Positions 2,838-28,952 of a DNA stretch of 40,000 bases are shown one piece after another (the stretch's first letter is position 1; every line of letters begins with the position of its first letter). The position numbers and the translations under genes were made by a program. The notes beneath the pieces are model-generated. The model worked only from the letters and a program-made list of their open reading frames with translations, searched no databases and was not told the DNA's origin. The DNA comes from Desulfovibrio sp. OttesenSCG-928-I05 (GTDB taxonomy: Bacteria > Desulfobacterota > Desulfovibrionia > Desulfovibrionales > Desulfovibrionaceae): positions 1-40,000 of the forward strand of contig JAJDHY010000001.1 of NCBI GenBank assembly GCA_030266385.1, given 5' to 3'.

Positions 2838-3050
2838 TTATTTATCTCGCACTGTTGCTATTGATATGAAGGTGCGCATCGCTTCCTGAATGGTCATTAC
2901 AGAGTGCATCAGGGGAAGGTGCAGGGGGTCGGAGCGGGCCTTTGTGTCATTCTGTGCTTGCTCTTCTGAAAACTTGAGAAGTTCGGAACGTAAAGCGTCC
3001 ATTGCCGCCTGAATAGACTTCAAATTGTCTGCTGTGGTTCCTTTTTCCAT
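2838..3050 (-). CDS. Hypothetical small protein (70 aa)
   Basis: ATG with SD AAGGAG, followed by the terminator. No recognisable motif. Confidence 0.55.
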   Translation of the reverse strand: MEKGTTADNLKSIQAAMDALRSELLKFSEEQAQNDTKARSDPLHLPLMHSVMTIQEAMRTFISIATVRDK

Positions 3051-3223
3051 GGCCTTACTCCTTTTTGAGCAGGGCGAAGGGAACGGTTTTCACAGCCAGA
3101 CTTGGGACGCCTGGGGGAAGCAGCCTTCCCTTGTTCTCCCCGTCGTACTGCCCGTTACAAGTTCATGGCCGGGCAAAATGCGGGTACTCTCCCAACAATA
3201 TAGTGACTGATTTTTTGTGAAAG

Positions 3224-3532
3224 TCAATACGGCTCCAAGCCCTGCGCTTCTCGTTTCACGTTCTCTTCCGCAAGCGTCACCAGATAGCCGAGCGGTTGAT
3301 TCAAAACCTGGGCCATACGCTGCGCATCTCCAAAAACAAGCCGCTGCTGCTTTCCCGCACGCTTTCCCTGGTAGCCCTCTGTAAGCAGCTTGATTTTTTC
3401 GTGTGCGCGTTTTTCGTCTTTGTCGTGCCATACCTTAATTGCAAATTCTTTTAAGGCGCTTTCCGTGCAACCGGCTTTTCTGACGACAAGCTGCACAAAA
3501 GCTCTCTCAAATTTCTCCGCATAAAATTTCAT
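3224..3532 (-). CDS. Hypothetical protein (102 aa)
   Basis: ATG at 3532 with SD GAGGT. It abuts the attL repeat directly. No recognisable motif. Confidence 0.55.
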   Translation of the reverse strand: MKFYAEKFERAFVQLVVRKAGCTESALKEFAIKVWHDKDEKRAHEKIKLLTEGYQGKRAGKQQRLVFGDAQRMAQVLNQPLGYLVTLAEENVKREAQGLEPY

Positions 3533-3533
3533 T

Positions 3534-3575
3534 CATACCTCTGCGTACCCTGACTTTTTTTTCGGGTCTGGCGGA
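3534..3575. repeat. attL-type direct repeat (ICE end distal to the tRNA)
   Basis: CATACC tct GCGTACCCTGACTT ttttttcgggtc TGGCGGA. It matches 31171-31206 in three blocks of 6, 14 and 7 nt. Confidence 0.7.
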
Positions 3576-3662
3576 ACAAGTTTCCGTACAGGCCTGACAA
3601 ATCATGCTATCCGGTCGAAAAATTCGGCATATATTGCCCCAATTTCAACCAAAGGGAAATGC

Positions 3663-3869
3663 ATGAAACAAATTCTTGAACGGTTTTATTCCGTACTTGG
3701 GAGCCCGTCAAAGGTTGCTTGCTACCTTCAATATTCGGACAGGCAACTCCGAAATATTCGGAAAAAGGTGGAGCTTGGCGAACCGCTCGATCCGCGTGTC
3801 GAGCTTTGGATAAAAACAAAGCACGATCTGCTGCATAACGCCCTCACAATCCAGGGCAAAGGAAAATAA
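3663..3869 (+). CDS. Small basic protein, possible HTH regulator; first gene of the leader operon
   Basis: 68-aa ORF with an SD-like AGGGAAA. The segment SPSKVACYLQYSDRQLRNIRKK looks HTH-like. Confidence 0.5.
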   Translation: MKQILERFYSVLGSPSKVACYLQYSDRQLRNIRKKVELGEPLDPRVELWIKTKHDLLHNALTIQGKGK

Positions 3870-3874
3870 CCCCT

Positions 3875-4189
3875 ATGGACGCCAACAAACGCAAGATAGC
3901 GCGAAACGCGGCGAAAGTTGAATTTCTTGCAAACGCGGAAGAAATTTTGTCGATGCTGGACAAGGGTTTTAACAAATTCAACGTTTATAGCGCACTCACA
4001 GAAAAAGGGCGTCTAACCATGGCCTATCGTTCGTTTTGCTGGAATTTGCAGCAATTCAAAAACCCGGAAAAGAGACAAAAAGAGAAAAAAGACACGCCAA
4101 AATCTATTGCTGCACCCCCCCTGCGGGTACCGGCAAAAAAAGAGGGCTTCGGGCAGCTTGAAGACGTTGATGTAAGCAAACTCGTTTAG
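3875..4189 (+). CDS. traK: TraK-like oriT-binding protein (RP4 leader operon type)
   Basis: 104 aa. Resembles my recollection of RP4 TraK in the N-terminal helix region and the C-terminal GF...D..KL tail. It sits directly upstream of the traL homologue. Confidence 0.65.
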   Translation: MDANKRKIARNAAKVEFLANAEEILSMLDKGFNKFNVYSALTEKGRLTMAYRSFCWNLQQFKNPEKRQKEKKDTPKSIAAPPLRVPAKKEGFGQLEDVDVSKLV

Positions 4190-4212
4190 CAAGGGCTGTT
4201 AACCATGAACAT

Positions 4213-4265
4213 TTTGAAAACACAACTCCTGACTTCCACGCGAGGCAACAACTACGCGGGGAAAT
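4213..4265 (+). promoter_or_regulatory. Conserved leader element, copy 1, upstream of traL
   Basis: The 21-mer CTGACTTCCACGCGAGGCAAC (4229-4249) is identical to 20586-20606, and TTTGAAA..AACT precedes it in both copies. CCACGCG (4236-4242) can pair with CGCGGGG (4255-4261), which covers the SD. Confidence 0.5.
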
Positions 4266-4994
4266 ATGGCAACGGTACATTTTATCCAGCAAGGTAAGGG
4301 CGGCGTGGGCAAATCCATGATTGCCGCAATTCTTTATCAAGTCTTGCTCCACCTCGGCAAAGAGGTTGTCGCTTATGACACCGATCCCGTCAATGCCACC
4401 CTGACGGGCTTCAAGGAGTTTTCCGTCACCCGGCTGCACATTTTGAAGCAGGACAACATTGACGTCCGGGCCTTTGACGATCTTCTGGAAGGCATTTTTG
4501 AACTGCCCCAGGAAGCCCATGCCATTGTGGACAATGGCGCGTCAAGTTTCGTCGCCCTCGGCGGCTACCTGAAGGAAAACGACGTCATTCAACTGCTGGA
4601 AGACAACGGACACCGCGTTTTCCTGCATACGGTCATAACGGGCGGGCAAGCCATTCTTGATACGCTTGCCGGTCTGAACCTCCTGGTAAGCGGCTTTCCC
4701 AAGACGCCCATAGTGATCTGGTTGAATCACTACTTCGGGGAGATTCAGATAGACGGCAAGCCTTTTGAAACATTCAATATCTATAAAGAATACTCGCATC
4801 AGTTCCATGCCCTTGTGCCGATTCCGCAAGGCAATCAGGCCACTATCGGCAAAGACCTGGAAAACCTGTTTGCCAAGCGCCAAAGTTTCAAAACTGCTAT
4901 CAACTCCAGCCAGAGCATTGCGGTGCGCTCCCGCCTCATGCGGTATTGGAACGAACTGATTGCCGCTGTCGAAGCGGCGCAAATATCCGCGTAG
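4266..4994 (+). CDS. traL: TraL-like ParA/MinD-fold ATPase (RP4 TraL family)
   Basis: The N-terminus VHFIQQGKGGVGKS, then DTDPVNATL and DNGASSFV, closely match the RP4 TraL pattern. Confidence 0.9.
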   Translation: MATVHFIQQGKGGVGKSMIAAILYQVLLHLGKEVVAYDTDPVNATLTGFKEFSVTRLHILKQDNIDVRAFDDLLEGIFELPQEAHAIVDNGASSFVALGGYLKENDVIQLLEDNGHRVFLHTVITGGQAILDTLAGLNLLVSGFPKTPIVIWLNHYFGEIQIDGKPFETFNIYKEYSHQFHALVPIPQGNQATIGKDLENLFAKRQSFKTAINSSQSIAVRSRLMRYWNELIAAVEAAQISA

Positions 4995-5004
4995 GGGGGC
5001 TGGC

Positions 5005-5496
5005 ATGACAGAAGCTATGCAGACTCCCGAAGTGCCGCAAAAAGCAGCTGCCGTGGAAACTCCCGCCCCCGCTGCCGCCGAAACCGAAAAAGAGCCGCTT
5101 TTGCCTGATGGCATTGGGCTGTCCATTGAAAGCGTCCGTGATCTACTGGTGAAAATCCATGACTGCAAGGTATCGCTGGACGATCCGGTGCTGATGGTCG
5201 TTACGATGCTGAACGCCTACCTGGGGGAAGTCCAGACACTTCAAAAGAGACATGAGGCGGGTCTGTCCCGGCTCATGACCGACAAAACCGATGACTACAT
5301 GAAGGGCGTCAAAGAAGCGGTCAAGGCGTTGCAGGAAGGCCTTTCCTCGGCTTCGGTGGAAGGCATCAAGGCGGTTTTCAACGAGCATGATTCCCGCCTG
5401 AAAGCCTTCAAGAGCAATCTTTCCTGGCTTGCGGCCATTACCGCGTGTTCCGCGATTATCAACGTCATTGCGTTCGTGCTGATGGGGGTGCGCTGA
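5005..5496 (+). CDS. TraM-like protein (assigned by position), coiled coil with a C-terminal TM helix
   Basis: ATG at 5005 follows GGGGGG. Its stop overlaps the trbB start (TGATG). C-terminal hydrophobic helix LAAITACSAIINVIAFVLMG. Confidence 0.5.
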   Translation: MTEAMQTPEVPQKAAAVETPAPAAAETEKEPLLPDGIGLSIESVRDLLVKIHDCKVSLDDPVLMVVTMLNAYLGEVQTLQKRHEAGLSRLMTDKTDDYMKGVKEAVKALQEGLSSASVEGIKAVFNEHDSRLKAFKSNLSWLAAITACSAIINVIAFVLMGVR

Positions 5497-6470
5497 TGAT
5501 TGCCGCGCACGAAGATACGCGCCTTCTGGACAATCTGCGCTTTGCCTGCGGGCCGCTGATGGTTGGCGCTCTGGAAGACGAAGGCATTATTGAAATCATG
5601 CTGAACCCGGATTCCTCGCTGTGGATCGAGCGATACGGGCAAGACCATGAACGGATAGGGGAAATTCCGCGAAAAGCGGCGGAATCCATCATGTATCTGG
5701 TGGCAAGCGCCCTCAAACTGACCGTCAACGAAAAGAGTCCCATTGTGGAAGGCGAGTTTCCCCTTGACGGTTCCCGGTTTGAAGGCACGTTTCCGCCCAT
5801 TGTCGGGCCTGGGCCGTCCTTCTCCCTGCGCAAAAAGGCGAGCCGGGTTTTTACCCTGGAAGAATACATGCTTGCCGGTTCCGTCACGGCGGAAGTCGTG
5901 CGCATCATTGAAGACGCGGTGCTGCGCCGCTTGAATATCGTTGTGGTCGGGGGCACATCCAGCGGCAAGACTACCTTCGTCAATGCGGTCATTGACGCGG
6001 TTTTCCGGCTTACGCCTTCGCATCGGCTGCTCATTCTGGAAGATACGGCGGAACTGCAATCCAAAAGCCCCAACTCCGTTTTCCTGCGCACCTCTGTTCT
6101 CGCGGAAGTGGACATGCGAAAGCTGGCGAAAGTCAGTATGCGCTATGCGCCCAAACGTATCCTTGTGGGGGAAGTGCGCGACGCTGCCGCCCTGGAAATG
6201 CTGAAACTCTGGAACACCGGGCATCCGGGGGGAATCTCCACATTTCACGCGGACAGTGCGGAAGAGGCGCTTCCACGCCTGGAAGAACTGGTCGAGGAAG
6301 CGGGGCTTGGCCCGAAGCAAAAGCTCATAGGCAGGGCTGTGGATTTGGCGGTCTACATGGAAAAGACGCCGGATAACCAGCGGCGCATATCGAGCATTGT
6401 GCGGGTCAACGGCTTCAACGCCAAAACGGAAAGCTACAATACCGACGTTCTCTACAGCGTCGCCGCATGA
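5496..6470 (+). CDS. trbB: TrbB/VirB11 secretion ATPase
   Basis: Walker A GGTSSGKTT and the GEVRD and GHPG motifs. The ATG overlaps the upstream stop. Confidence 0.95.
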   Translation: MIAAHEDTRLLDNLRFACGPLMVGALEDEGIIEIMLNPDSSLWIERYGQDHERIGEIPRKAAESIMYLVASALKLTVNEKSPIVEGEFPLDGSRFEGTFPPIVGPGPSFSLRKKASRVFTLEEYMLAGSVTAEVVRIIEDAVLRRLNIVVVGGTSSGKTTFVNAVIDAVFRLTPSHRLLILEDTAELQSKSPNSVFLRTSVLAEVDMRKLAKVSMRYAPKRILVGEVRDAAALEMLKLWNTGHPGGISTFHADSAEEALPRLEELVEEAGLGPKQKLIGRAVDLAVYMEKTPDNQRRISSIVRVNGFNAKTESYNTDVLYSVAA

Positions 6471-6482
6471 AGGCAGGAAAGT

Positions 6483-6701
6483 ATGACCAATATCAATAAC
6501 GCTCTGCCTGAAATTCGGTGCCCGCGCTGTAACAAACTGCTTGCAAAGGGGGTGCTTGACGTCGGGATTATAGAGTTTCAATGCCCTGGTGATAAGTGCC
6601 ACAAAAGAAAGATAATCCTGCGGGCCACGCGCCCCAATCTTGCGCCGCATGACGGCCTCTATGGAGACAGTCATGTACGCAAAACCCCTTCTCAATCGTA
6701 G
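6483..6701 (+). CDS. Mu Com-like zinc-ribbon protein
   Basis: IRCPRCNKLLAKG....IEFQCPGDKCHKRKII matches the Com pattern (C-x2-C-N-K-L-L ... IEI-x-CP-x2-C). The ORF ends 29 nt inside trbC. Confidence 0.75.
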   Translation: MTNINNALPEIRCPRCNKLLAKGVLDVGIIEFQCPGDKCHKRKIILRATRPNLAPHDGLYGDSHVRKTPSQS

Positions 6702-6735
6702 CAACCTTCGTACCCCCGGCCTGGCGCTGCTCGGC
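6617..6735 (+). repeat. Translation-initiation module, copy A (Com tail, SD, ATG, start of signal peptide)
   Basis: 6617-6675 is about 50 of 59 identical to 12806-12864. 6711-6735 is 23 of 25 identical to 12882-12906. Confidence 0.9.
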
Positions 6736-7023
6736 CTGATGGCGTTTGCGCTGTTTTTCCCTGAAATTGCCGCCGCTTCCGGGGGCATCACGGAATTTTC
6801 CAGCCCACTTGAAAAGGTGGTGAATACTGTTACCGGCCCTGCCGGTAAGTGGATTTCCATTGTGGCAATGGCGCTGTGCGGCATCATCTTTATCATGAAT
6901 AAAGATGATATTTCAGGCGGCTTCAAGCTCCTGCTCGGCGTCGTCTTCGGCATCAGCTTCATCGCTTTTGCCGGGAGTATCGTCAATAGCGTGTTTACCT
7001 TCTCCGGGGCGCTGGTGGGGTAA
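6673..7023 (+). CDS. trbC: TrbC/VirB2 pilin precursor
   Basis: SD GGAGA 5 nt upstream of the ATG at 6673, a signal peptide, two TM helices, and the expected position between trbB and trbD. Confidence 0.85.
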   Translation: MYAKPLLNRSNLRTPGLALLGLMAFALFFPEIAAASGGITEFSSPLEKVVNTVTGPAGKWISIVAMALCGIIFIMNKDDISGGFKLLLGVVFGISFIAFAGSIVNSVFTFSGALVG

Positions 7024-7316
7024 TGCGCACTATCCCGATCCATCAATCCCTGCACAGGCACAATCATGTCCTGGGGGCGGAAAGGGAACTGGTGCTGACG
7101 GCAGGGCTTATTGCCCTGCTGGTCGGCATCGGTGGCCTTACCCTCATTTCCATTGTGTCCGCTGCCGTCTTCTGGCTGTTCGCGGTCTTTGCCCTGCGGC
7201 GCATGGCAAAGGCTGATCCGCAAATGTCAAAGGTATGGTTGCGCCATATCAAACAACAGCTTTTTTACCCCTCAAAAACAGGCCGTTGGTGCGTGAACGG
7301 GGGTAAAAAATGCTGA
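7023..7316 (+). CDS. trbD: TrbD/VirB3
   Basis: 97 aa. The pattern GAERELV...GL plus a TM hairpin. TAATG overlap with trbC. Confidence 0.9.
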   Translation: MRTIPIHQSLHRHNHVLGAERELVLTAGLIALLVGIGGLTLISIVSAAVFWLFAVFALRRMAKADPQMSKVWLRHIKQQLFYPSKTGRWCVNGGKKC

Positions 7317-9715
7317 AACTCCATGATTTCCGCAGCAAGGCAAAGGGGCTTTCCGATCTCCTGCCCTATGCCGCGCTCATTGGCCCCGGCGTTATTCTGA
7401 ACAAGGACGGGAGCCTTACCGCCGCATGGGAAGTGCGCGGGCAAGATACTGCCTCGTCCACGCCCGATGAACTCGCATACATCAGCGCCCAGGTGAATCA
7501 GGCCGTGAAACTTCTTGGTACGGGGTGGGTCATGCACATGGATGCCGTGCGCGGTTCCAGCCAAGCCTACCCGGAAGCGCATAAAAGCGCCTTCCCTGAT
7601 CGCATCACGCAAATGATTGACGACGAAAGGCGGCGCTATTTCAGCCGTGACGAATGTTACGGCACGAATACCGTTCTGACAGTAACCTATAAACCTGACT
7701 TTGCTGAACAGCGCATTTCAGCCGGGGTGCATACCGGAAGCGGCATAGAAAAAGCCTTGCAACGCTTTGAAACGACGTTGCAGGAACTTGAAGACGCGCT
7801 TTCGGTTGTCCTGCGCATGAAGCGCCTGGAAGAATACGACGCCTATTATGATGATGGGGAAGCATACCGGCAATCCGATCTGCTTTCGCACATCCAGCAT
7901 TGCGTCAGCGGCAATCTTCACCCCATGCGCGTACCGGATACGCCCATGTACCTTGACGCGCTCCTGGGGAGTGAAGACCTGATCGGGGGCGTGGTTCCCA
8001 AGGTCGGCGGTCAATACGTAATGGTTTTGGGCATTGACGGCTTGCCGCAAGAGTCCTGGCCCGCGATCCTGGTCGAACTTGACAGCCTCCCGATTCAGTA
8101 CCGCTTTTCGACGCGGTTTATCTGCCTCGATCAATATGATGCCGTGAAGGAAATACGTTCGTATTGTAAGGGTTGGCGGCAACAGGTTTTCCGGGTCATT
8201 GACCAATTCCTGAATAACCCCAATGCACGGGCGAACCGTGACGCACTCTTGATGGCGGAAGACGCCGAAACGGCAATGACGGAAGTGCAAGGGGGCTATG
8301 TGGGCGCGGGGTATCTCACGTCCTGCATTGTTCTGCTGCATAACAATCTTGACGTTTTGCAAGATTGGGCGCGGGAGTTGCGCCGCTCAGTGCAAACGCT
8401 CGGCTTCGGCTGCCGGATTGAAAGCGTCAACGCGCTTGAAGCCTGGCTCGGCACACATCCGGGCAACACGTTTGCGAACGTGCGCCGCCCGCTGGTGAAC
8501 ACGCTCAATCTGGCGGATTTGCTGCCCCTGGCAAGCGTCTGGACGGGTGCGCCGGGTGCGCCGTGCCCATTCTACCCGCCCGATAGCCCGCCTTTGGCGG
8601 TCTGCACAACGGACGGGCAAACCCCGTTTTGGCTCAACCTTCATCATGGCGACATAGGCCACACGCTGATTTTCGGGCCTACGGGCGCGGGAAAAAGCAC
8701 CCTCCTTGCGGCGTTGGCCGCGCAGTTCCGGCGTTACCGGAACGCGCAAATATTCGCCTTTGACAAGGGCATGTCCATGTTCCCCTTGTGTCACGGCTCC
8801 GGGGGTACTCATTATAATATCGGGGAATCCTCCGACCTTTCGTTTGCTCCGCTGCAACGGATCAGCGAGTCGGAAGAAGAGTTTTCCTGGGCCGCTGAAT
8901 GGGTGGAAGCCCTGCTTGCATTGCAGGGAGTGACGGTCACACCGGCACACCGCAACGCGATTCATACGGCCCTGGACAGTCTGCGGGCCTCGCCGGAACA
9001 TATGCGGTCTTTGACTGACTTTGTTCACCGGCTGCAAGACATGGGCTTGAAAGAAGCCTTGCGCCATTACACCGAAGCCGGGGCAATGGGGCGGCTGCTC
9101 GATGCCCGGTCGGACAACCTGGGTGTATCCAGCTTCACCACCTTTGAAATTGAAGAACTGATGAACCTGGGGGAGAAAAACCTTATTCCGGTTCTGCTGT
9201 ACCTGTTCAGGCGCATTGAAAAGAGCCTGACCGGGCAACCGACGATCCTGATTCTGGACGAAGCCTGGATCATGCTCGGCCACCCGGTTTTCCGCTCCAA
9301 AATCCGCGAATGGCTGAAAGTCATGCGCAAGGCCAACTGCTGCGTGATTCTGGCGACGCAAAGCCTGTCGGACGCGAAAAATTCCGGCATTCTGGACGTT
9401 CTGACCGAATCCTGCCCCACAAAAATCTTTCTGGCGAACCTTGCGGCACGTCAGGAAGGGCAAGCGGCCCTCTACTACGATATGGGCCTGAATACCCGGC
9501 AAATAGACATCATTTCAAACGCCACTCCCAAGCGGGACTACTACGTTGTGACGCCTGTAGGCCGTCGCAAGATTCAACTCGCGCTTGGGGCTGTAACCCT
9601 GGCTTTTGTCGGTTCCTCCGACAAAGAGAGCATTGCCCGTATCAAAGAGCTTTCCGAAGTTCACGGCCCCGATGGCTGGCAAGATTACTGGCTGCGCGAA
9701 TGTCAGGCGATATGA
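7310..9715 (+). CDS. trbE: TrbE/VirB4 ATPase
   Basis: 801 aa. Walker A GPTGAGKST and Walker B ILILDEAW. Confidence 0.97.
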   Translation: MLKLHDFRSKAKGLSDLLPYAALIGPGVILNKDGSLTAAWEVRGQDTASSTPDELAYISAQVNQAVKLLGTGWVMHMDAVRGSSQAYPEAHKSAFPDRITQMIDDERRRYFSRDECYGTNTVLTVTYKPDFAEQRISAGVHTGSGIEKALQRFETTLQELEDALSVVLRMKRLEEYDAYYDDGEAYRQSDLLSHIQHCVSGNLHPMRVPDTPMYLDALLGSEDLIGGVVPKVGGQYVMVLGIDGLPQESWPAILVELDSLPIQYRFSTRFICLDQYDAVKEIRSYCKGWRQQVFRVIDQFLNNPNARANRDALLMAEDAETAMTEVQGGYVGAGYLTSCIVLLHNNLDVLQDWARELRRSVQTLGFGCRIESVNALEAWLGTHPGNTFANVRRPLVNTLNLADLLPLASVWTGAPGAPCPFYPPDSPPLAVCTTDGQTPFWLNLHHGDIGHTLIFGPTGAGKSTLLAALAAQFRRYRNAQIFAFDKGMSMFPLCHGSGGTHYNIGESSDLSFAPLQRISESEEEFSWAAEWVEALLALQGVTVTPAHRNAIHTALDSLRASPEHMRSLTDFVHRLQDMGLKEALRHYTEAGAMGRLLDARSDNLGVSSFTTFEIEELMNLGEKNLIPVLLYLFRRIEKSLTGQPTILILDEAWIMLGHPVFRSKIREWLKVMRKANCCVILATQSLSDAKNSGILDVLTESCPTKIFLANLAARQEGQAALYYDMGLNTRQIDIISNATPKRDYYVVTPVGRRKIQLALGAVTLAFVGSSDKESIARIKELSEVHGPDGWQDYWLRECQAI

Positions 9716-9725
9716 GGACACATAT

Positions 9726-10529
9726 ATGAAGAAAGTACTTTTCCTTTCCGCGCTGTTCGTAGTGCTGATGGTCGGGAATGCAAGCGCAGCCTCGTTCTTC
9801 TGTAAGAACTGCTCAACGAACCTTGTGCAACTTCTGGATAGGGTCACGAACATGGAACAGCTTTCAAGCCTGCTGAAACAGTATGATGAAGCTGTAACGC
9901 AAACCGCGCAACAAATAGAAATGGTGCGGCAGAATATCCAGCAATACGCCAATATGCTGCAAAACACGGCGCAACTCCCGGCAAACCTTGTCAACGAACT
10001 GAAAGGCCGGTTGACGCAACTTGCAAGCCTTACGGGGCAACTGAAAACACTACGTGGTGACGTGGTTTCGCTTGGATCTATCTTTACCCAACTGTACCCG
10101 GAAAGCGGCCTTTTTGGCGATATTGCCGGGGCCAGCCCGGAACAAATGGCGAAGGCGGCGGAAAAGTATCAGGCATCTTGGGATGCGTGGTCTGAAAACG
10201 TGGATCGGGCGTCACAAGCGGCTTTTCAACTCTCCGGTGCGCAACTGAACGAACTGCAACGGGACGCCTCCAAGTTCCAATCCTACCTGGACAATCTGCT
10301 GTCCACGCCTGACGGGCAAATGAAGGCAATTATGGCGGGCAACCAGCTTTCCGCGCTGCAAGTACAGGAAGCCCGCCAACTGCGGGAACTCATGGCAACG
10401 CAAGTGCAGAACTCCATCAGTTCACAAATGAAGCAGGAGAAAGAAAGCCAGATGGGGCAAGAAGCCTGGCGCGACGCTACGAAAGTAGACGGCCTCGGCG
10501 GGCTGAACTCCAAGGCCGATCCATTTTAG
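9726..10529 (+). CDS. trbJ: TrbJ/VirB5-like protein
   Basis: Signal peptide MKKVLFLSALFVVLMVGNASA, a coiled-coil body, and the expected position after trbE. Confidence 0.85.
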   Translation: MKKVLFLSALFVVLMVGNASAASFFCKNCSTNLVQLLDRVTNMEQLSSLLKQYDEAVTQTAQQIEMVRQNIQQYANMLQNTAQLPANLVNELKGRLTQLASLTGQLKTLRGDVVSLGSIFTQLYPESGLFGDIAGASPEQMAKAAEKYQASWDAWSENVDRASQAAFQLSGAQLNELQRDASKFQSYLDNLLSTPDGQMKAIMAGNQLSALQVQEARQLRELMATQVQNSISSQMKQEKESQMGQEAWRDATKVDGLGGLNSKADPF

Positions 10530-10531
10530 TC

Positions 10532-10927
10532 CTAGAACGGGTCAGCCTTGGACGTAAGCGGGTCTTGTTCCGGTTGTGAGGGGGCGGAGAGAATATTTCT
10601 TACTTCGTCCTGGGTTGTGCGGACAAAGGTTTTCGTTCCGAAAATATGATTTGTGAATTGCGCCCAATTCGCGTCGTGAAGCACCGCTACCAGAATGGGG
10701 TCTTTCTCTCCCGTCCTTCTCACAACGTAACGGTTTTTATCCTCTTCAATCGTGATAGCAGCGGAGTTTTCGCCTATGGATATATTGTCTTCACTTATTA
10801 CGACGGTGCGTAGTTTGCCGGTTAAAGAATCGGTTTCCGTGCTTTTCCATGCGCCTGTCACATCAGCGGCCATAGCTGAAAAGGGGAACGCGAACAGCGC
10901 AACCAAAAGCAATGCGGTTTTCTTCAT
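10532..10927 (-). CDS. Secreted protein of unknown function in the trbK position, opposite strand
   Basis: Sec signal peptide MKKTALLLVALFAFPFSAMA. GC is visibly lower than the flanking trb genes. Ends in LTSKADPF. Convergent with trbJ, with a 2-nt gap. Confidence 0.6.
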   Translation of the reverse strand: MKKTALLLVALFAFPFSAMAADVTGAWKSTETDSLTGKLRTVVISEDNISIGENSAAITIEEDKNRYVVRRTGEKDPILVAVLHDANWAQFTNHIFGTKTFVRTTQDEVRNILSAPSQPEQDPLTSKADPF

Positions 10928-10946
10928 CGGACTGATTACCCTTTGT

Positions 10947-12047
10947 GTGTTGGTGGTTTCGTTGTTGAATCCCACAACGGCCTTTGCCGCTGCCGACGCG
11001 GATTTTGTATCAACTTTGGTCAAGGAGTTCTACACTAAAACTTCGGCCTGGGAGCCGGTTCTGCGCAAGTATGCGGTACTGGTTTTTCAATGGCTCGTTA
11101 CCCTGGAAGTCTGTTTCTTGGGCATAAAAGCTGCCCTGAACCGCGATCAGATCGCGGACATATTCAAGCAGTTCGTTATGCTTTTACTGGCGGCGGGCTT
11201 TTTTCTGGCGGTTATCAACAACTATCAGGAATGGTCGTGGAATCTGATTAACGGCCTGAAAGGCATAGGCCTGCAACTCAATTCCTCGCAAATCTCTTCG
11301 GATGGCCCTTTTCTGGCGGGTATGAAGCTGGTGAAGCTGATTCTCTCCAAGCTCTCCGTGTGGTCGCCGGGCAATTCCATTGCCTTGTTGGTGGCGGCGC
11401 TCGTTATCATCGTCTGTTTCGCCCTGATTTCCGCGCAAGTGGTCTTAATCAAGTGCGAAGCCATGATTGCCATGATGGCCGCGCTTATTCTGGTGGGATT
11501 CGGCGGGTCTGCCTTCTTTCGGGACTATGCGATAAACGCGCTTCGCTATGTTCTCTCCGTTGCCTTCAAGCTCTTTGTCATGCAGTTGGTTTTGTCGGTC
11601 GGCATACAGTTCATTGAATCCTTCAATACTGCGGCGGCTGAACTGCAAGACATTTTCGTGATTATCGGCGCGTCCGTCGTCCTTCTGGCCCTGGTCAAAT
11701 CGCTCCCCGATGTTGTTTCCGGCATTATTCACGGCTCCCACGTCAACGGGGGCAATCTCCTGGGCGCTGCCGCTGCTGTGGGCGGCACGGCCCTGGCCGC
11801 TGGCGCTCTAGCTGTCGGCGGTGCGCAAAACATTCAGAACGTCAAAGACGCCTCAAAGATTGCGAACACCGAAGGCAAAAGCGGATTCGGCAAACTCGCC
11901 AGTATGGCCGGTTCCATGATGGGGGCGCGGCGTGACGCGAAAAGCGGCGGGGAACGGTCGCTAACCTCCCGCACACGCTCGGAAATGCAGGAAAGGGTTC
12001 ACAAGGCGACGATGGCGGCAAACCCTCAAAACAAAGGTAGTGAATAA
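10947..12047 (+). CDS. trbL: TrbL/VirB6 (start uncertain)
   Basis: Multi-TM protein with a Gly/Ala-rich C-terminus. Similarity to RP4 TrbL begins near AAADADFV. No ATG lies between 10776 and the mature region, so the candidate starts are GTG 10947, TTG 10950 and GTG 10953. Confidence 0.85.
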   Translation: MLVVSLLNPTTAFAAADADFVSTLVKEFYTKTSAWEPVLRKYAVLVFQWLVTLEVCFLGIKAALNRDQIADIFKQFVMLLLAAGFFLAVINNYQEWSWNLINGLKGIGLQLNSSQISSDGPFLAGMKLVKLILSKLSVWSPGNSIALLVAALVIIVCFALISAQVVLIKCEAMIAMMAALILVGFGGSAFFRDYAINALRYVLSVAFKLFVMQLVLSVGIQFIESFNTAAAELQDIFVIIGASVVLLALVKSLPDVVSGIIHGSHVNGGNLLGAAAAVGGTALAAGALAVGGAQNIQNVKDASKIANTEGKSGFGKLASMAGSMMGARRDAKSGGERSLTSRTRSEMQERVHKATMAANPQNKGSE

Positions 12048-12778
12048 TGGGTTGGTTCAAGAAAGAAGCCGCTCCCAGGCCCGCAAAGGATTCCGGGAGA
12101 AATCCCTACTTTGACGGGCGGCAGGAATGGCTTGAACGATACGGCTCCTATATCAGCCGAGCTAACCAGTGGCGCATTTTCAGCGTCCTTGCGGTGCTGG
12201 CCCTGCTTGTTTCCCTGTCCTGCAACTATGTGCAGTCCTCCCAGGTCAAGGCGGTTCCTTACATCATTGAAGTGGATCAGCTTGGCAAAATCGGCGCGGT
12301 GGCAAGGGCGGACTCCGCCAGTTCGACGCCTCGGCGGCTCATTCAGGCAGAAATTGCACAGTGTATCAGCTCATGGCGGACGGTCACAGCGGACGTGGAA
12401 CTGCAACAAAAAATGATCGACCGGCTTTCATATTTCATGGCGGGTGCAGCAAAGGGCGTTATGCGCGAGTGGTACGAAACGAACAATCCCTATGAAATTG
12501 CCAAGTCCGGCAAGCTGGTACACGTTGAAATCAAGGGGCTTCCCCTGCCTGTCAGCGGCGATTCCTACCGGGTGGAATGGACGGAAACGGTCAGAAGCCA
12601 CGCCGGTATCGTCCTTGACTCCAACCAGTTTGAGGCCACGGTGACGATCCAGATCCAGCCGCCGACGCAGGATGTGGTGATTCTGCGTAACCCCGGCGGC
12701 ATCTACCTGACCGCCATAAGCGCCGGAAAGGTCATTGGCTCCACCGCTCCGAAACTGCCCGAACCGCAAGGGCAATAG
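12047..12778 (+). CDS. trbF: TrbF/VirB8
   Basis: NPYFDGRQEWLERYG motif plus a single TM helix. Confidence 0.9.
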   Translation: MGWFKKEAAPRPAKDSGRNPYFDGRQEWLERYGSYISRANQWRIFSVLAVLALLVSLSCNYVQSSQVKAVPYIIEVDQLGKIGAVARADSASSTPRRLIQAEIAQCISSWRTVTADVELQQKMIDRLSYFMAGAAKGVMREWYETNNPYEIAKSGKLVHVEIKGLPLPVSGDSYRVEWTETVRSHAGIVLDSNQFEATVTIQIQPPTQDVVILRNPGGIYLTAISAGKVIGSTAPKLPEPQGQ

Positions 12779-12787
12779 GACAGTATA

Positions 12788-12916
12788 ATGAAAAACCGCT
12801 TCCTGCTGCGGGCCTCGCGCCCCAACACCGCGCCGCATGACGGCCTCTTTGGAGATTTGTCATGCTGCAGAAAACCCATTGCCCCGGCCTGGCGCTGCTT
12901 GGCCTCGTATTCTTAA
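12788..12916 (+). other. 42-codon ORF that keeps only the Com-like tail (no zinc ribbon)
   Basis: MKNRFLLRASRPNTAPHDGLFGD... compared with Com-like ...RKIILRATRPNLAPHDGLYGD. It overlaps the trbG start in the same way that 6483-6701 overlaps trbC. Confidence 0.3.
12806..12906 (+). repeat. Translation-initiation module, copy B (upstream of and into trbG)
   Basis: See copy A. It includes SD GGAGA, the ATG at 12862 and the signal-peptide segment PGLALLGL. Confidence 0.9.
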
Positions 12917-13815
12917 CCGCTTTTCTGTTTTTGGGCGTGGGCCCGGCGCAAGCCGCCGCCACGCCTCCGGGGTATCCTCCCGCGCTGCCCGAATCGGCAA
13001 ACAAGCCGGTGGCGACGCCTCCCCTTGATTTTATCAGCCCTGACGCGGTTGAACTGACCGACAAAGAGCGCAAAGCCCTGCAACTTTCCGAGGATTGGGC
13101 GCGGCGCAATATCGATCCGGTTCTCACGCCTGGGGGAAAAATCATCTATGTCCACGGCGCGACAATGCCTAGCGTCGTCGCCTCTCCTTTCCAGATTTGC
13201 GATGTGGAACTGGAACAAGGTGAAACCGTCCGTGATATTTTTGTGGGCGATACGGCCCGCTGGCAGGTTGATTCCGGTTCTTCCGGCTCCGGGGCGTCGT
13301 TGGCCGTGCATGTGTTTATCAAGCCGCTGGATGCCGGTTTGGAAACGAACTGCGCCATTACAACGGATCGCCGGGTCTATCATCTGCGCTTTATCTCCAA
13401 GCGCAAGGGCCACACGCCTTATGTGGGCTTTGCATACAACGATTCCATAAAACAACGCCAAGCCTGGCGGACGGAACAGAAAGCCAAGTCCGAACATTGG
13501 CAGTCAACGGAAATTGATGGCGAACGGGCGGATTTGTCGGCGCTGAACTTCAATTACGCGGTTTCGGGCAAGCCGAAATGGAAGCCGGAACGGGTCTATG
13601 ACGACGGCAGACAGATTTTCATTCGTCTGCCCGAATCCGCCAAATCAACGGAAATGCCGGTGTTGCTCGTCCGCAAGGGCGGCAAAGATGTGATTGTCAA
13701 TTACCGGGTCAAGGACAAGGCAATCATTGTTGACGGCATTTTTGACCATATAGCCCTGATTCTCGGCGTCGGCGGCGATCAGGAAAAAGTGGAAATCAAG
13801 AGGGGGAACAAGTAA
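12862..13815 (+). CDS. trbG: TrbG/VirB9
   Basis: 317 aa with a signal peptide, a VirB9-like body, and the expected position. Confidence 0.93.
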   Translation: MLQKTHCPGLALLGLVFLTAFLFLGVGPAQAAATPPGYPPALPESANKPVATPPLDFISPDAVELTDKERKALQLSEDWARRNIDPVLTPGGKIIYVHGATMPSVVASPFQICDVELEQGETVRDIFVGDTARWQVDSGSSGSGASLAVHVFIKPLDAGLETNCAITTDRRVYHLRFISKRKGHTPYVGFAYNDSIKQRQAWRTEQKAKSEHWQSTEIDGERADLSALNFNYAVSGKPKWKPERVYDDGRQIFIRLPESAKSTEMPVLLVRKGGKDVIVNYRVKDKAIIVDGIFDHIALILGVGGDQEKVEIKRGNK

Positions 13816-27532: not shown

Positions 27533-27793
27533 TCACTCAAAATCAAGGTCGGTGAACTGAAAACCGGCGACGCCGGTATGGCAGTATTCGCCCCTGTGGT
27601 TGCGGATAAACAGGTGCTCCGCTTCCAGATCGGCAAGGGATAGCTCCCAACGGAACAGGGAAGGAACGGACAACTTTCTGACCTGATATTTGTCCACGGT
27701 GCCGGTTTTCCGCTGCTTGCTCCGCGCCCATTCAAGACGCTTTTCCAATGGCGAACTGACAACGAAAGGACGTATTCTCCCGCTATTGCTCAT
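27533..27793 (-). CDS. Hypothetical protein (86 aa)
   Basis: ATG at 27793 overlaps the upstream gene's stop by 11 nt. No recognisable motif. Confidence 0.5.
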   Translation of the reverse strand: MSNSGRIRPFVVSSPLEKRLEWARSKQRKTGTVDKYQVRKLSVPSLFRWELSLADLEAEHLFIRNHRGEYCHTGVAGFQFTDLDFE

Positions 27794-28952
27794 GGCTGTT
27801 TGCCCCGCCTTCACCGTGCCCCCCCATTTGCGGGCCTGGCTCCTTTTCCCTGTCGGGCCAGATATGTTGCCGGAAGTGCTGTCTAAGTCGGACTGCTGCC
27901 GGAATGGCAATGCGGTTGTCAGGCCCAAGTATTTCTTGGCGGGCGTCAGGGGTCAGGCTGGCGATCCAGGCGTCCGCTTCGGCTTCACGGCGAGCCTCAT
28001 AGGCTTTCTTCTCCCGGCGCGTGGTCGCTTCGCGGTCACGCTCGGCCTGTTCTGCGGGGGATATGTAGGCTGCGGGGCGGGGGTAATATCCTTGTGTCGC
28101 AAGGATTTTGAATACCCAATTCAGCGGAGTTGAAACGGGTTCGCCCTTGTGGGTGGTCATGCACTCGCGGGCAAGCTCCCATTCCGCATAGGTCAAGCCC
28201 TGCATGATATGCTCAAGCGTTTCACCTACCTGGGCGCGGCGTTGCATGATTTGCCGAATCTGAACCGTGCCGAAACCGACGCGGGCCAGTTCGGGCCAGT
28301 GAAAGGCTATGTCCTCTTCGGAAAGGGATTCCAGAAGTGCGCTATACCTTTTTGAATTTTCAGAAGAGATAGAAAGAATATTTCTATCTATCTTTTCTCT
28401 TAGAATAGAGGGGGCAAAATCGGCGTCAGGGTGGACGCCGGGGTGGACGGCAGGGTGGACGGGTGCGCAAAGGCATGGCCCTGCCGCTCTGATGTGGGGG
28501 CAAAGCATTTCTTGAATGAGGGTGAAGGTAACGCCCTGGCTGGTGCCTACCTTGGCCTGTTTGCGGCGTAAATAGCCGCGATTCACAAGACGCTCGACAC
28601 TTCGGCGGACGGCTCCGGGGGATCGTATCATTGAGTACACTCGCTCCAATTCGGCGGACAGTTGCTTGTACGGGGTCACGGTTGGCCCGATGGCAAGCAA
28701 CAGCCCGATAATGTTGATTTGTGCGGCTGAAAGCCCTTTGCGGCATGAAATACGGTTGATGTCGTCGGGGATTTCAGGATGGACGCCGGGGTGGACGTCA
28801 GGGCGGACGGGGGGCAGGGTGGACGCCAGGGCGCACGTCAGGTCGCACGCTAGGGTGGACGGGTGGACGTCAGGCTGGACGCCAGAATGGACGCCAGGGT
28901 GGACGCCCGCATGAGAGCCGCCAGGGGCGGTAATCATGCTTGCCGCGCTCAC
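27783..28952 (-). CDS. Winged-helix DNA-binding protein, Rep-like, with VHPG-type repeats
   Basis: The GTG start overlaps the alpA stop (GTGA). MarR-like wHTH (YKQLSAELERVYSMIRSPGAVRRSVERLVNRGYL). Repeats V-H-P-G flank it. Confidence 0.7.
   Translation of the reverse strand: MSAASMITAPGGSHAGVHPGVHSGVQPDVHPSTLACDLTCALASTLPPVRPDVHPGVHPEIPDDINRISCRKGLSAAQINIIGLLLAIGPTVTPYKQLSAELERVYSMIRSPGAVRRSVERLVNRGYLRRKQAKVGTSQGVTFTLIQEMLCPHIRAAGPCLCAPVHPAVHPGVHPDADFAPSILREKIDRNILSISSENSKRYSALLESLSEEDIAFHWPELARVGFGTVQIRQIMQRRAQVGETLEHIMQGLTYAEWELARECMTTHKGEPVSTPLNWVFKILATQGYYPRPAAYISPAEQAERDREATTRREKKAYEARREAEADAWIASLTPDARQEILGPDNRIAIPAAVRLRQHFRQHIWPDREKEPGPQMGGHGEGGANSHEQ
28426..28466. repeat. 12-nt repeat cluster 1 inside the Rep-like CDS (3 units, GGTGGACG core)
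   Basis: GGTGGACG at 28430, 28442 and 28454. Confidence 0.85.
28776..28912. repeat. 12-nt repeat cluster 2 inside the Rep-like CDS (about 12 units)
   Basis: Minus-sense units are GTCCACCC and variants. The spacing is 12 nt except for one 8-nt and one 16-nt unit. Confidence 0.85.

Follow-up and report, generated by a model that had tools for sequence, protein, structure and literature searches.

The trb operon of a Desulfovibrio ICE contains an additional small gene

We analysed a stretch of 40,000 nucleotides from Desulfovibrio sp. OttesenSCG-928-I05 (the window), to which all positions refer unless a related locus (L and a number) is named. The window carries an IncP/Trb-type integrative conjugative element (ICE) of the Desulfovibrio type. 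In a single block it encodes TrbB, TrbC, TrbD, TrbE, TrbL, TrbF, TrbG, TrbI, TraG, a relaxase and an integrase, which identifies a P-type conjugative type IV secretion system (T4SS), together with a traK-like DUF5338 gene, traL, a traM-like gene, a TraF-like S26 peptidase, ArdC and a topoisomerase. Chromosomal genes start at about 31.9 kb. Two open reading frames on the reverse strand, 166-1926 (585 aa) and 27783-28952 (388 aa), give no hit in Pfam at E <= 0.001 and are probably cargo or maintenance genes of the element. A scan of 3000-13200 for promoters and terminators gave a result at chance level. The genes of the operon that are central to this work are the following:

5445..6470, forward strand: trbB, VirB11-type ATPase (TIGR02782 equivalog, 359 bits against a cut-off of 304.6 bits)
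6483..6701, forward strand: com-like gene, 72 aa, an ATG open reading frame (MTNINNALPEIRCPRCNKLLAKGVLDVGIIEFQCPGDKCHKRKIILRATRPNLAPHDGLYGDSHVRKTPSQS) between trbB and trbC
6673..7023, forward strand: trbC, VirB2-type pilin precursor, 116 aa (PF04956, 3.6e-16)
12862..13815, forward strand: trbG, VirB9/CagX, 317 aa (PF03524, 4.8e-51; the exact product is recorded at NCBI)

Homologues of TrbB have 324-328 aa, and the true start of trbB is probably the ATG at 5496. The trbB gene lies directly 5′ of com, with 12 nt between its stop and the com ATG. The trbC gene has a Shine-Dalgarno (SD) sequence, GGAG at 6663-6666, 6 nt 5′ of its ATG at 6673, and is followed downstream by the TrbD/VirB3 gene. The NCBI record holds an identical 116-aa TrbC product starting at this ATG, so that the com-like frame ends 29 nt inside trbC (6673-6701), as the first-pass annotation of this DNA had described.

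The small gene encodes a homologue of phage Mu Com

The first-pass annotation had also read a Com signature in the 72-aa protein. Taken alone, the window protein does not reach the gathering cut-off of the Pfam family PF10122 (Zn_ribbon_Com; 15.6 bits, E 0.011, against 22.9 bits), because its second knuckle is CPGDKC (CX4C) instead of CPRC (CX2C). The signature is clear in its homologues: 30 of the 34 closest family members match PF10122 (best 9.1e-18), and those that are 55-60% identical to the window protein pass the cut-off. Aligned with Mu Com by hhalign, the family profile scores a probability of 97.9% (E 5.5e-13, 47 columns), and by BLASTP the window protein itself is 37% identical to Mu Com across 51 aa (E 1e-6). 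On these alignments we regard the homology to Mu Com as secure despite the sub-threshold Pfam score.

Cysteines 13, 16, 34 and 39 are predicted to form an N-terminal CCCC zinc ribbon, and all four are invariant in 34 sequences. AlphaFold2 models a four-stranded ribbon over residues 10-47 (pLDDT ~79-88) followed by a low-confidence tail (pLDDT 47-58), in agreement with the published description of Mu Com as an N-terminal CCCC finger with a disordered C-terminus (PMC6483171). Searches of the PDB gave no significant match, either by structure (Foldseek with the AlphaFold2 model, best E 1.1) or by sequence (best E 0.03, to generic zinc ribbons). The ribbon is under purifying selection, with pN/pS of 0.40 at pS of 0.56. 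A chance open reading frame is ruled out by this ratio, by the invariant cysteines and by the conservation of the gene between trbB and trbC in about 40 independent loci.

These loci were found in genome and metagenome scans and come from Desulfovibrio genomes or MAGs and from metagenomes, mostly human-gut; all keep the order trbB-com-trbC-trbD. Across them Com is 50-66% identical and the neighbouring proteins 75-86%. The survey of trbB-trbC intervals proposed earlier thus found com in the same place in the relatives. Relatives in Desulfovibrio genomes carry the NCBI product name 'Com family DNA-binding transcriptional regulator'. The exact window protein was found nowhere in a collection of 15 billion proteins, in which TrbC and TrbG of the same stretch are present (NCBI source); apparently the small com gene was not called in the source record. 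In some metagenome copies com is fused in frame with trbC or broken by stops or frameshifts (L026 2958-3506, L039 223-435, L040 1184-1300, L036 1121-1417). Several of these contig names give a coverage of 0.7-2.3x, and the copies are either pseudogenes or low-coverage assembly errors. One further candidate, a 15-aa tail match in a 6-Mb chromosome (L011), lacks the RNA element described below and was set aside as a chance match.

The expectation that standard Trb operons lack such a gene agrees with the plasmid data: tblastn with the homologue P0002 (61% identical to the window protein) found no Com-like gene in 72,556 plasmids, and megablast of the region against the plasmid collection gave no significant match. 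An exhaustive profile search recovered 303 relatives. More distant relatives (41-45% identity) are phage genes. Searches of the phage collection gave one non-significant match for the window protein (E 0.6) and, for P0002, only weak ones to Com-like proteins of Burkholderia phage (E 1e-3). Outside ICEs, the nearest relatives come from Mu-like prophages of Desulfovibrio piger and D. falkowii, where com (44% identity) overlaps mom (PF25680). In other prophages com overlaps a C5-methylase plus an N6/N4 methylase, and in further ones a small ORF followed by other modification-type enzymes. Most simply, from sequence, the ICE com would be a recruit from such a Mu-like com-modification module.

At the end of some Mu-like prophages (L059-L064, about 750-2800 each) the phage com adjoins a diversity-generating retroelement (bAvd and reverse transcriptase) and overlaps an ORF of 54-59 aa, followed by ParB-N/methyltransferase or formyltransferase-type genes. 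These gene sets may be unexplored DNA-modification cassettes.

A conserved RNA element spans the end of com and the start of trbC

The 3′ third of com is frozen at synonymous sites, whereas the zinc-ribbon codons vary freely at their third positions. At invariant residues, third positions have an entropy of 0.87 in the ribbon and of 0.21 in the tail (Mann-Whitney p = 7.5e-4), and pS likewise falls from 0.56 to 0.21. The following features lie in this part of the gene:

6619..6636, forward strand: hairpin hp1, predicted by minimum-free-energy (MFE) folding and by RNAalifold, with loop CACGC
6642..6659, forward strand: near-invariant block GCGCCGCATGACGGCCTC, which holds the 5′ arm CAUGACGG (6648-6655) and the anti-SD CUC (6657-6659)
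6648..6675, forward strand: start-masking (translation-inhibition-type) helix, from the fold and the RNAalifold consensus

The predicted pairs of hp1 are U6619-A6636, G6620-C6635, G6622-C6634, G6623-C6633, G6624-C6632 and C6625-G6631. About 11 nt further on begins the start-masking helix, in which positions 6648-6653 and 6655 pair with 6668 and 6670-6675, that is, CAUGACGG is joined to CAGUCAUG (6668-6675), the trbC AUG (6673-6675) included. In addition, CUC pairs with the GAG of the SD and hides most of it. The MFE fold also has an outer stem (6640-6644/6679-6683), and the segment 6640-6685 folds at -17.4 kcal/mol (z = -3.0 against shuffles). Unguided, RNAalifold arrived at both hp1 and the start-masking helix from the alignment.

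The 18-nt block 6642-6659 reads GCG CCG CAT GAC GGC CTC in 22 of 24 distinct com copies, synonymous sites included, and the other two each differ by one synonymous change (CAC in L030, GAT in L031). Among 32 ICE copies, 97.8% of the cells are paired compared to 28-44% in slid controls; most changes turn G-C into G-U, and a single compensatory one turns C-G into U-A. When 45 distinct copies are considered, in an alignment fitted to the model, 96% of the cells are paired (33-42% in slid controls), changes on both sides occur at 9 of 17 pairs, and none of 500 shuffles reached these values. The 5′ arm is almost invariant in the ICE copies, and the covariation comes mostly from a few divergent copies and the phage loci; what the statistics support is conservation and pairing.

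The best-kept part is hp1, paired in 100% of the cells over the 45 distinct copies. Its loop varies (CACGC, CUCGC, UGUAA and others), and divergent copies show compensatory changes in its stem: in the trbF copy of L065 GGGC/GCCC has become GAAC/GUUC (G-C to A-U), and in the L059 phage copy a C-G pair has become A-U with the encoded peptide altered to LRDTIP (from the alignment). Phage com genes also keep hp1. In position hp1 matches the Com site of Mu, and by this analogy it is a candidate Com-binding hairpin.

A second hairpin, GCCG-CAUGA-CGGC (6645-6657), is an attractive candidate alternative that would exclude the start-masking helix and be excluded by it; the block that spans it barely varies among the ICE copies. 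Thermodynamics alone does not single out the starts concerned, as trbC and trbG (mean unpaired probability of the SD-AUG region 0.41 and 0.33) lie within the range of the other operon genes (0.15-0.72 over 17 gene starts). An Rfam 15 covariance-model search of 6300-13100 gave no match at E <= 1.

The element is repeated in front of other transfer genes

The exact 16-mer that begins the near-invariant block occurs once more in the window. A covariance model built from the element copies (R1) has only two strong matches over the 40 kb, at 6618-6684 (86 bits) and at 12806-12873 (74.4 bits, E 1e-14). The second match and its surroundings contain:

12806..12873, forward strand: element copy 2, the ~67-nt element with the zinc-ribbon coding part missing, found by the 16-mer repeat and by R1
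12788..12916, forward strand: mini-ORF of 42 aa (MKNRFLLRASRPNTAPHDGLFGD...), with its own ATG 9 nt past the trbF stop

Copy 2 lies between trbF and trbG and has the same layout: hp1 at 12807-12824, the near-invariant block at 12830-12847, the SD GGAG at 12851-12854 and an AUG at 12862, the last two being those of trbG. The same 16 nt are exact in most of the non-coding copies of relatives as well. We propose trbC and trbG as the two regulated genes of the window. The mini-ORF crosses copy 2 and extends 55 nt into trbG; it is probably a remnant of the com tail and a by-product of the duplication, or else a leader peptide that couples trbF and trbG translation.

Two further matches in the window were discarded. 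The segment 6460-6475, just 5′ of the com ATG, is a weak match with 3 mismatches that relatives do not share, and we put it down to chance; the R1 match at 28907-28938 (11 bits, E 0.6) is not significant. Also rejected was the conserved ATG 6649 as the trbC start: it has no SD and lies inside the helix arm, and the equivalent ATG 12837 is out of frame with trbG at 12862.

In related ICEs the element stands before other genes, in the following combinations:

L042-L047 and L050: before traG
L046: before the topoisomerase gene
L065: before trbC and trbF
L066: before trbC, traG and the topoisomerase gene
L067 and L068: before trbC, traG, a Dam-like methylase gene and the topoisomerase gene

Wherever a copy precedes a gene, that gene begins with the AUG of the 3′ arm. 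The 5′ edge of the similarity among copies is sharp and lies at CUGCGGGCC. Genes behind operator copies tend to start with M-x-A-K (MYAK in trbC, MPAK or MCAK in traG, MCAK in the topoisomerase), a tendency seen at 6673-6684 of the window and in the start regions of L042-L047 and L066-L068. Duplication seems to have taken in the first 3-4 codons as well, and these pair with the GCG of the block to make the outer stem.

Small phage-type Dam methylase genes (PF05869) are found in related ICEs (L067 18535-18972, L068 19262-19699, L046 2576-2995, L006 4435-4893), in some directly behind their own operator copy; in the window no Dam-like gene with an operator was seen. A Dam gene in this position recalls the phage habit of placing com before modification genes, and by that analogy it may mark the route by which the module entered the ICE.

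In relatives, toxin-antitoxin cassettes on the opposite strand lie between trbI and traG, directly 5′ of the traG operator copy: HicB/HicA-like in L043 (1294-1883), L044 (646-1238) and L066 (12684-13280), and ParE/Phd in L050 (18697-19342) and L068 (12708-13347). The edge of the element looks like a preferred point of insertion or recombination. Two metagenome contigs hold the 5′ half of the element only, hp1 and the near-invariant block (L048 1524-1594, L049 789-867). In L048 the half-element forms an in-frame fusion with a truncated topoisomerase gene, and in L049 it faces a convergent gene; both are either rearrangement scars or assembly chimeras.

R1 also matches outside ICEs, in com-mom junctions of Desulfovibrio prophages (31-34 bits) and in other phage com genes (21-53 bits). 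In these phage matches hp1 is nearly identical, and the downstream arms differ in sequence yet still pair with the start region of the target; at the L052 junction, for example, CCAUAGAG pairs with CUUUAUGG. The com-mom junctions L052 and L053 each fold unaided into the two-hairpin layout.

Alternative explanations for the element

We considered whether the element could work through translation of the frame that crosses it. Ribosomes translating com or the mini-ORF would melt the helix by pure translational coupling, and the Com protein would have another role or none at these sites. The arrangement allows for this, as the com frame runs through the whole element and 29 nt into trbC, the mini-ORF with its own ATG crosses the trbG copy in the same manner, and several traG copies retain an open com-tail frame with upstream ATGs. 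However, in the topoisomerase copy of L046 and the traG copy of L050 the frame lacks a start codon and is closed by a stop 9-12 nt upstream of the element, so that no upstream ORF reads through them; their sequences argue for a trans-acting factor over ribosome-mediated coupling. Coupling has no need of hp1 either, which is nonetheless better conserved than any other part in ICE and phage copies and stays paired in L059 despite the changed peptide. Finally, in Mu the same overlap geometry still requires Com in trans (PMC6483171, PMC3299994). We judge pure coupling to be unlikely.

The element could also be a site in DNA, its inverted repeat CATGACGG..CCGTCATG and the GGGC/GCCC palindrome being operators of a DNA-binding regulator or junctions of recombination and duplication. 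Its arms are good DNA palindromes, NCBI names the family a DNA-binding transcriptional regulator, and both the truncated 5′ halves at apparent rearrangement points (L048, L049) and the toxin-antitoxin cassettes just 5′ of several traG copies would suit such a site. Nevertheless all 49 significant copies are oriented with the downstream gene, to which the 3′ arm provides the SD and the AUG, and the minus strand scores 16-26 bits with the covariance model against 60-91 bits. The commonest departure, G-C to G-U (about 40 cells), breaks a DNA palindrome and leaves an RNA helix intact, whereas its mirror type, A-C, is rare. Since the copies have gene-sense orientation, G-U outnumber A-C departures, the minus strand scores lower and the homologous system of Mu acts on RNA (PMC6483171), we favour an RNA element, and the DNA-level explanation appears quite improbable.

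A Com-independent constitutive attenuator or a selfish repeat, with com as a passenger from phage, is to us very unlikely. Copy number and targets do differ between close relatives (trbG here, trbF in L065, traG, dam and topoisomerase in L066-L068), which suggests mobility. Against this explanation, the zinc ribbon is kept by selection (pN/pS 0.40, pS 0.56, four invariant cysteines), com is present in every near-complete element-bearing ICE locus that we examined, and insertion is always in register with a start codon.

A putative translational regulon for conjugation

We consider it fairly probable that the Com/operator module of Mu-like phages has been taken up by the ICE and serves there as a small translational regulon for conjugation. 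The Com-like protein would be made from the trbB-com-trbC transcript and would bind the hp1 region of each operator copy. Binding would shift the adjacent helix to an open form on which 30S subunits could load, thereby permitting initiation at trbC and trbG in the window and at the trbF, traG, dam-like and topoisomerase genes in relatives. The sequences themselves establish the gene, its homology, the conserved structure, the repetition of that structure and its register with start codons. That the protein would bind RNA, and would activate and not repress, is drawn by analogy from the homologous Com/mom pair of Mu; the purpose in the cell is likewise inferred.

If so, accumulation of Com would gate the translation of the pilin and of a core-channel subunit, and in relatives that of the coupling protein and of DNA-processing enzymes. 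The outcome would be a post-transcriptional threshold or delay on the assembly of the transfer apparatus, possibly serving to hold back T4SS parts that are costly or that expose phage receptors. The first-pass annotation suggested control of pilin synthesis, and those points of it that could be checked are supported here; by the same analogy, control would reach beyond the pilin, the operator also standing before trbG here and before trbF, traG, dam-like and topoisomerase genes in relatives.

A broader statement is that Com is the domesticated master post-transcriptional switch of conjugation in a family of ICEs of gut Desulfovibrionaceae, opening a portable ~67-nt start-masking operator that has been copied before pilin, core-channel (TrbF/TrbG), coupling-protein, Dam-like and topoisomerase genes to form a dispersed translational regulon. 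We put this only slightly above an even chance.

Until now Com/mom was a curiosity confined to a single gene in Mu-like phages, with one protein, one mRNA site and one toxic DNA-modification gene. Here the protein-RNA pair is found in a conjugation operon, with its operator multiplied before different transfer genes. The protein family and the class of mechanism are already known; new are the genes targeted, an operator multiplied into a regulon and the setting in an ICE, and full-text literature searches returned no description of a Com homologue in a conjugation operon or of a repeated element of this type. Provided that the module works as in Mu, it would be a compact, modular ON-switch of translation, re-used in evolution as a regulon, and it would add an unrecognised layer of control on horizontal gene transfer in abundant sulfate reducers of the human gut. 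On the same condition, the ~45 natural operator variants and the Com proteins that co-evolve with them would make the unsolved Com-RNA recognition code testable.

Comparison with known systems

Other systems also limit the expression of transfer genes, among them FinO/FinP of F-like plasmids, which acts on traJ mRNA, and KorB and TrbA of IncP plasmids. FinOP combines an antisense RNA with a chaperone, targets a structured 5′ region in which the ribosome-binding site lies, and represses a single master regulator; KorB and TrbA repress transcription. To our knowledge, these systems have no homology to the Com system and involve no zinc-ribbon RNA-binding activator.

Among the closest known systems is the Com/mom pair of Mu. 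Both proteins are homologous and combine an N-terminal CCCC ribbon with an unstructured tail, and in both systems the regulator gene overlaps the start of its target, by 29 nt in the ICE and by 50 nt in Mu (AF083977), which upholds the likeness in geometry that had been pointed out earlier. The published target of Mu Com is GAAUGCCUGCGAGCAUCCC (PMC6483171). We find that it lies on the codons L-N-A-C-E-H-P, directly before a CCCAC...GUGGG stem that holds the mom SD and GUG, and in the profile alignment the hp1 codons L-R-A-x-R-P fall opposite L-N-A-C-E-H-P. The two systems thus have in common a hairpin in the 3′ part of com at aligned codons, followed by a helix that sequesters both the SD and the start codon of the target.

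They differ in what is controlled and in how the operator is deployed. The ICE targets are type IV secretion and DNA-processing genes, whereas the target in Mu is a DNA-modification enzyme, and the ICE operator is present in 2-4 dispersed copies and would serve several genes in trans. In sequence, neither the arm nor the hairpin of the ICE is related to the Mu site, a gap of ~11 nt separates hp1 from the helix whereas the Mu site abuts its inhibitory stem, and the second knuckle of the window protein is CX4C. Loop recognition by Mu Com is reported to be sequence-specific, whereas the loop of hp1 varies.

Com homologues placed before non-mom modification genes or methyltransferases, with putative Com sites, have already been described (PMC3299994). 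We compared the com-mom and com-methyltransferase pairs of Mu-like prophages (FluMu hin1523, Pnme1 and the Desulfovibrio piger and falkowii prophages) with the ICE system. Mu-like prophage pairs include its nearest relatives by sequence (41-45% identity), and have in common with it the hp1 sequence (C/G)UGCGGGCCACGCGCCCC and the two-hairpin layout. All of them, however, are in phage late or DNA-modification contexts with a single operator, whereas the ICE lineage has a near-invariant arm of its own, GCGCCGCAUGACGGCC, and has multiplied it.
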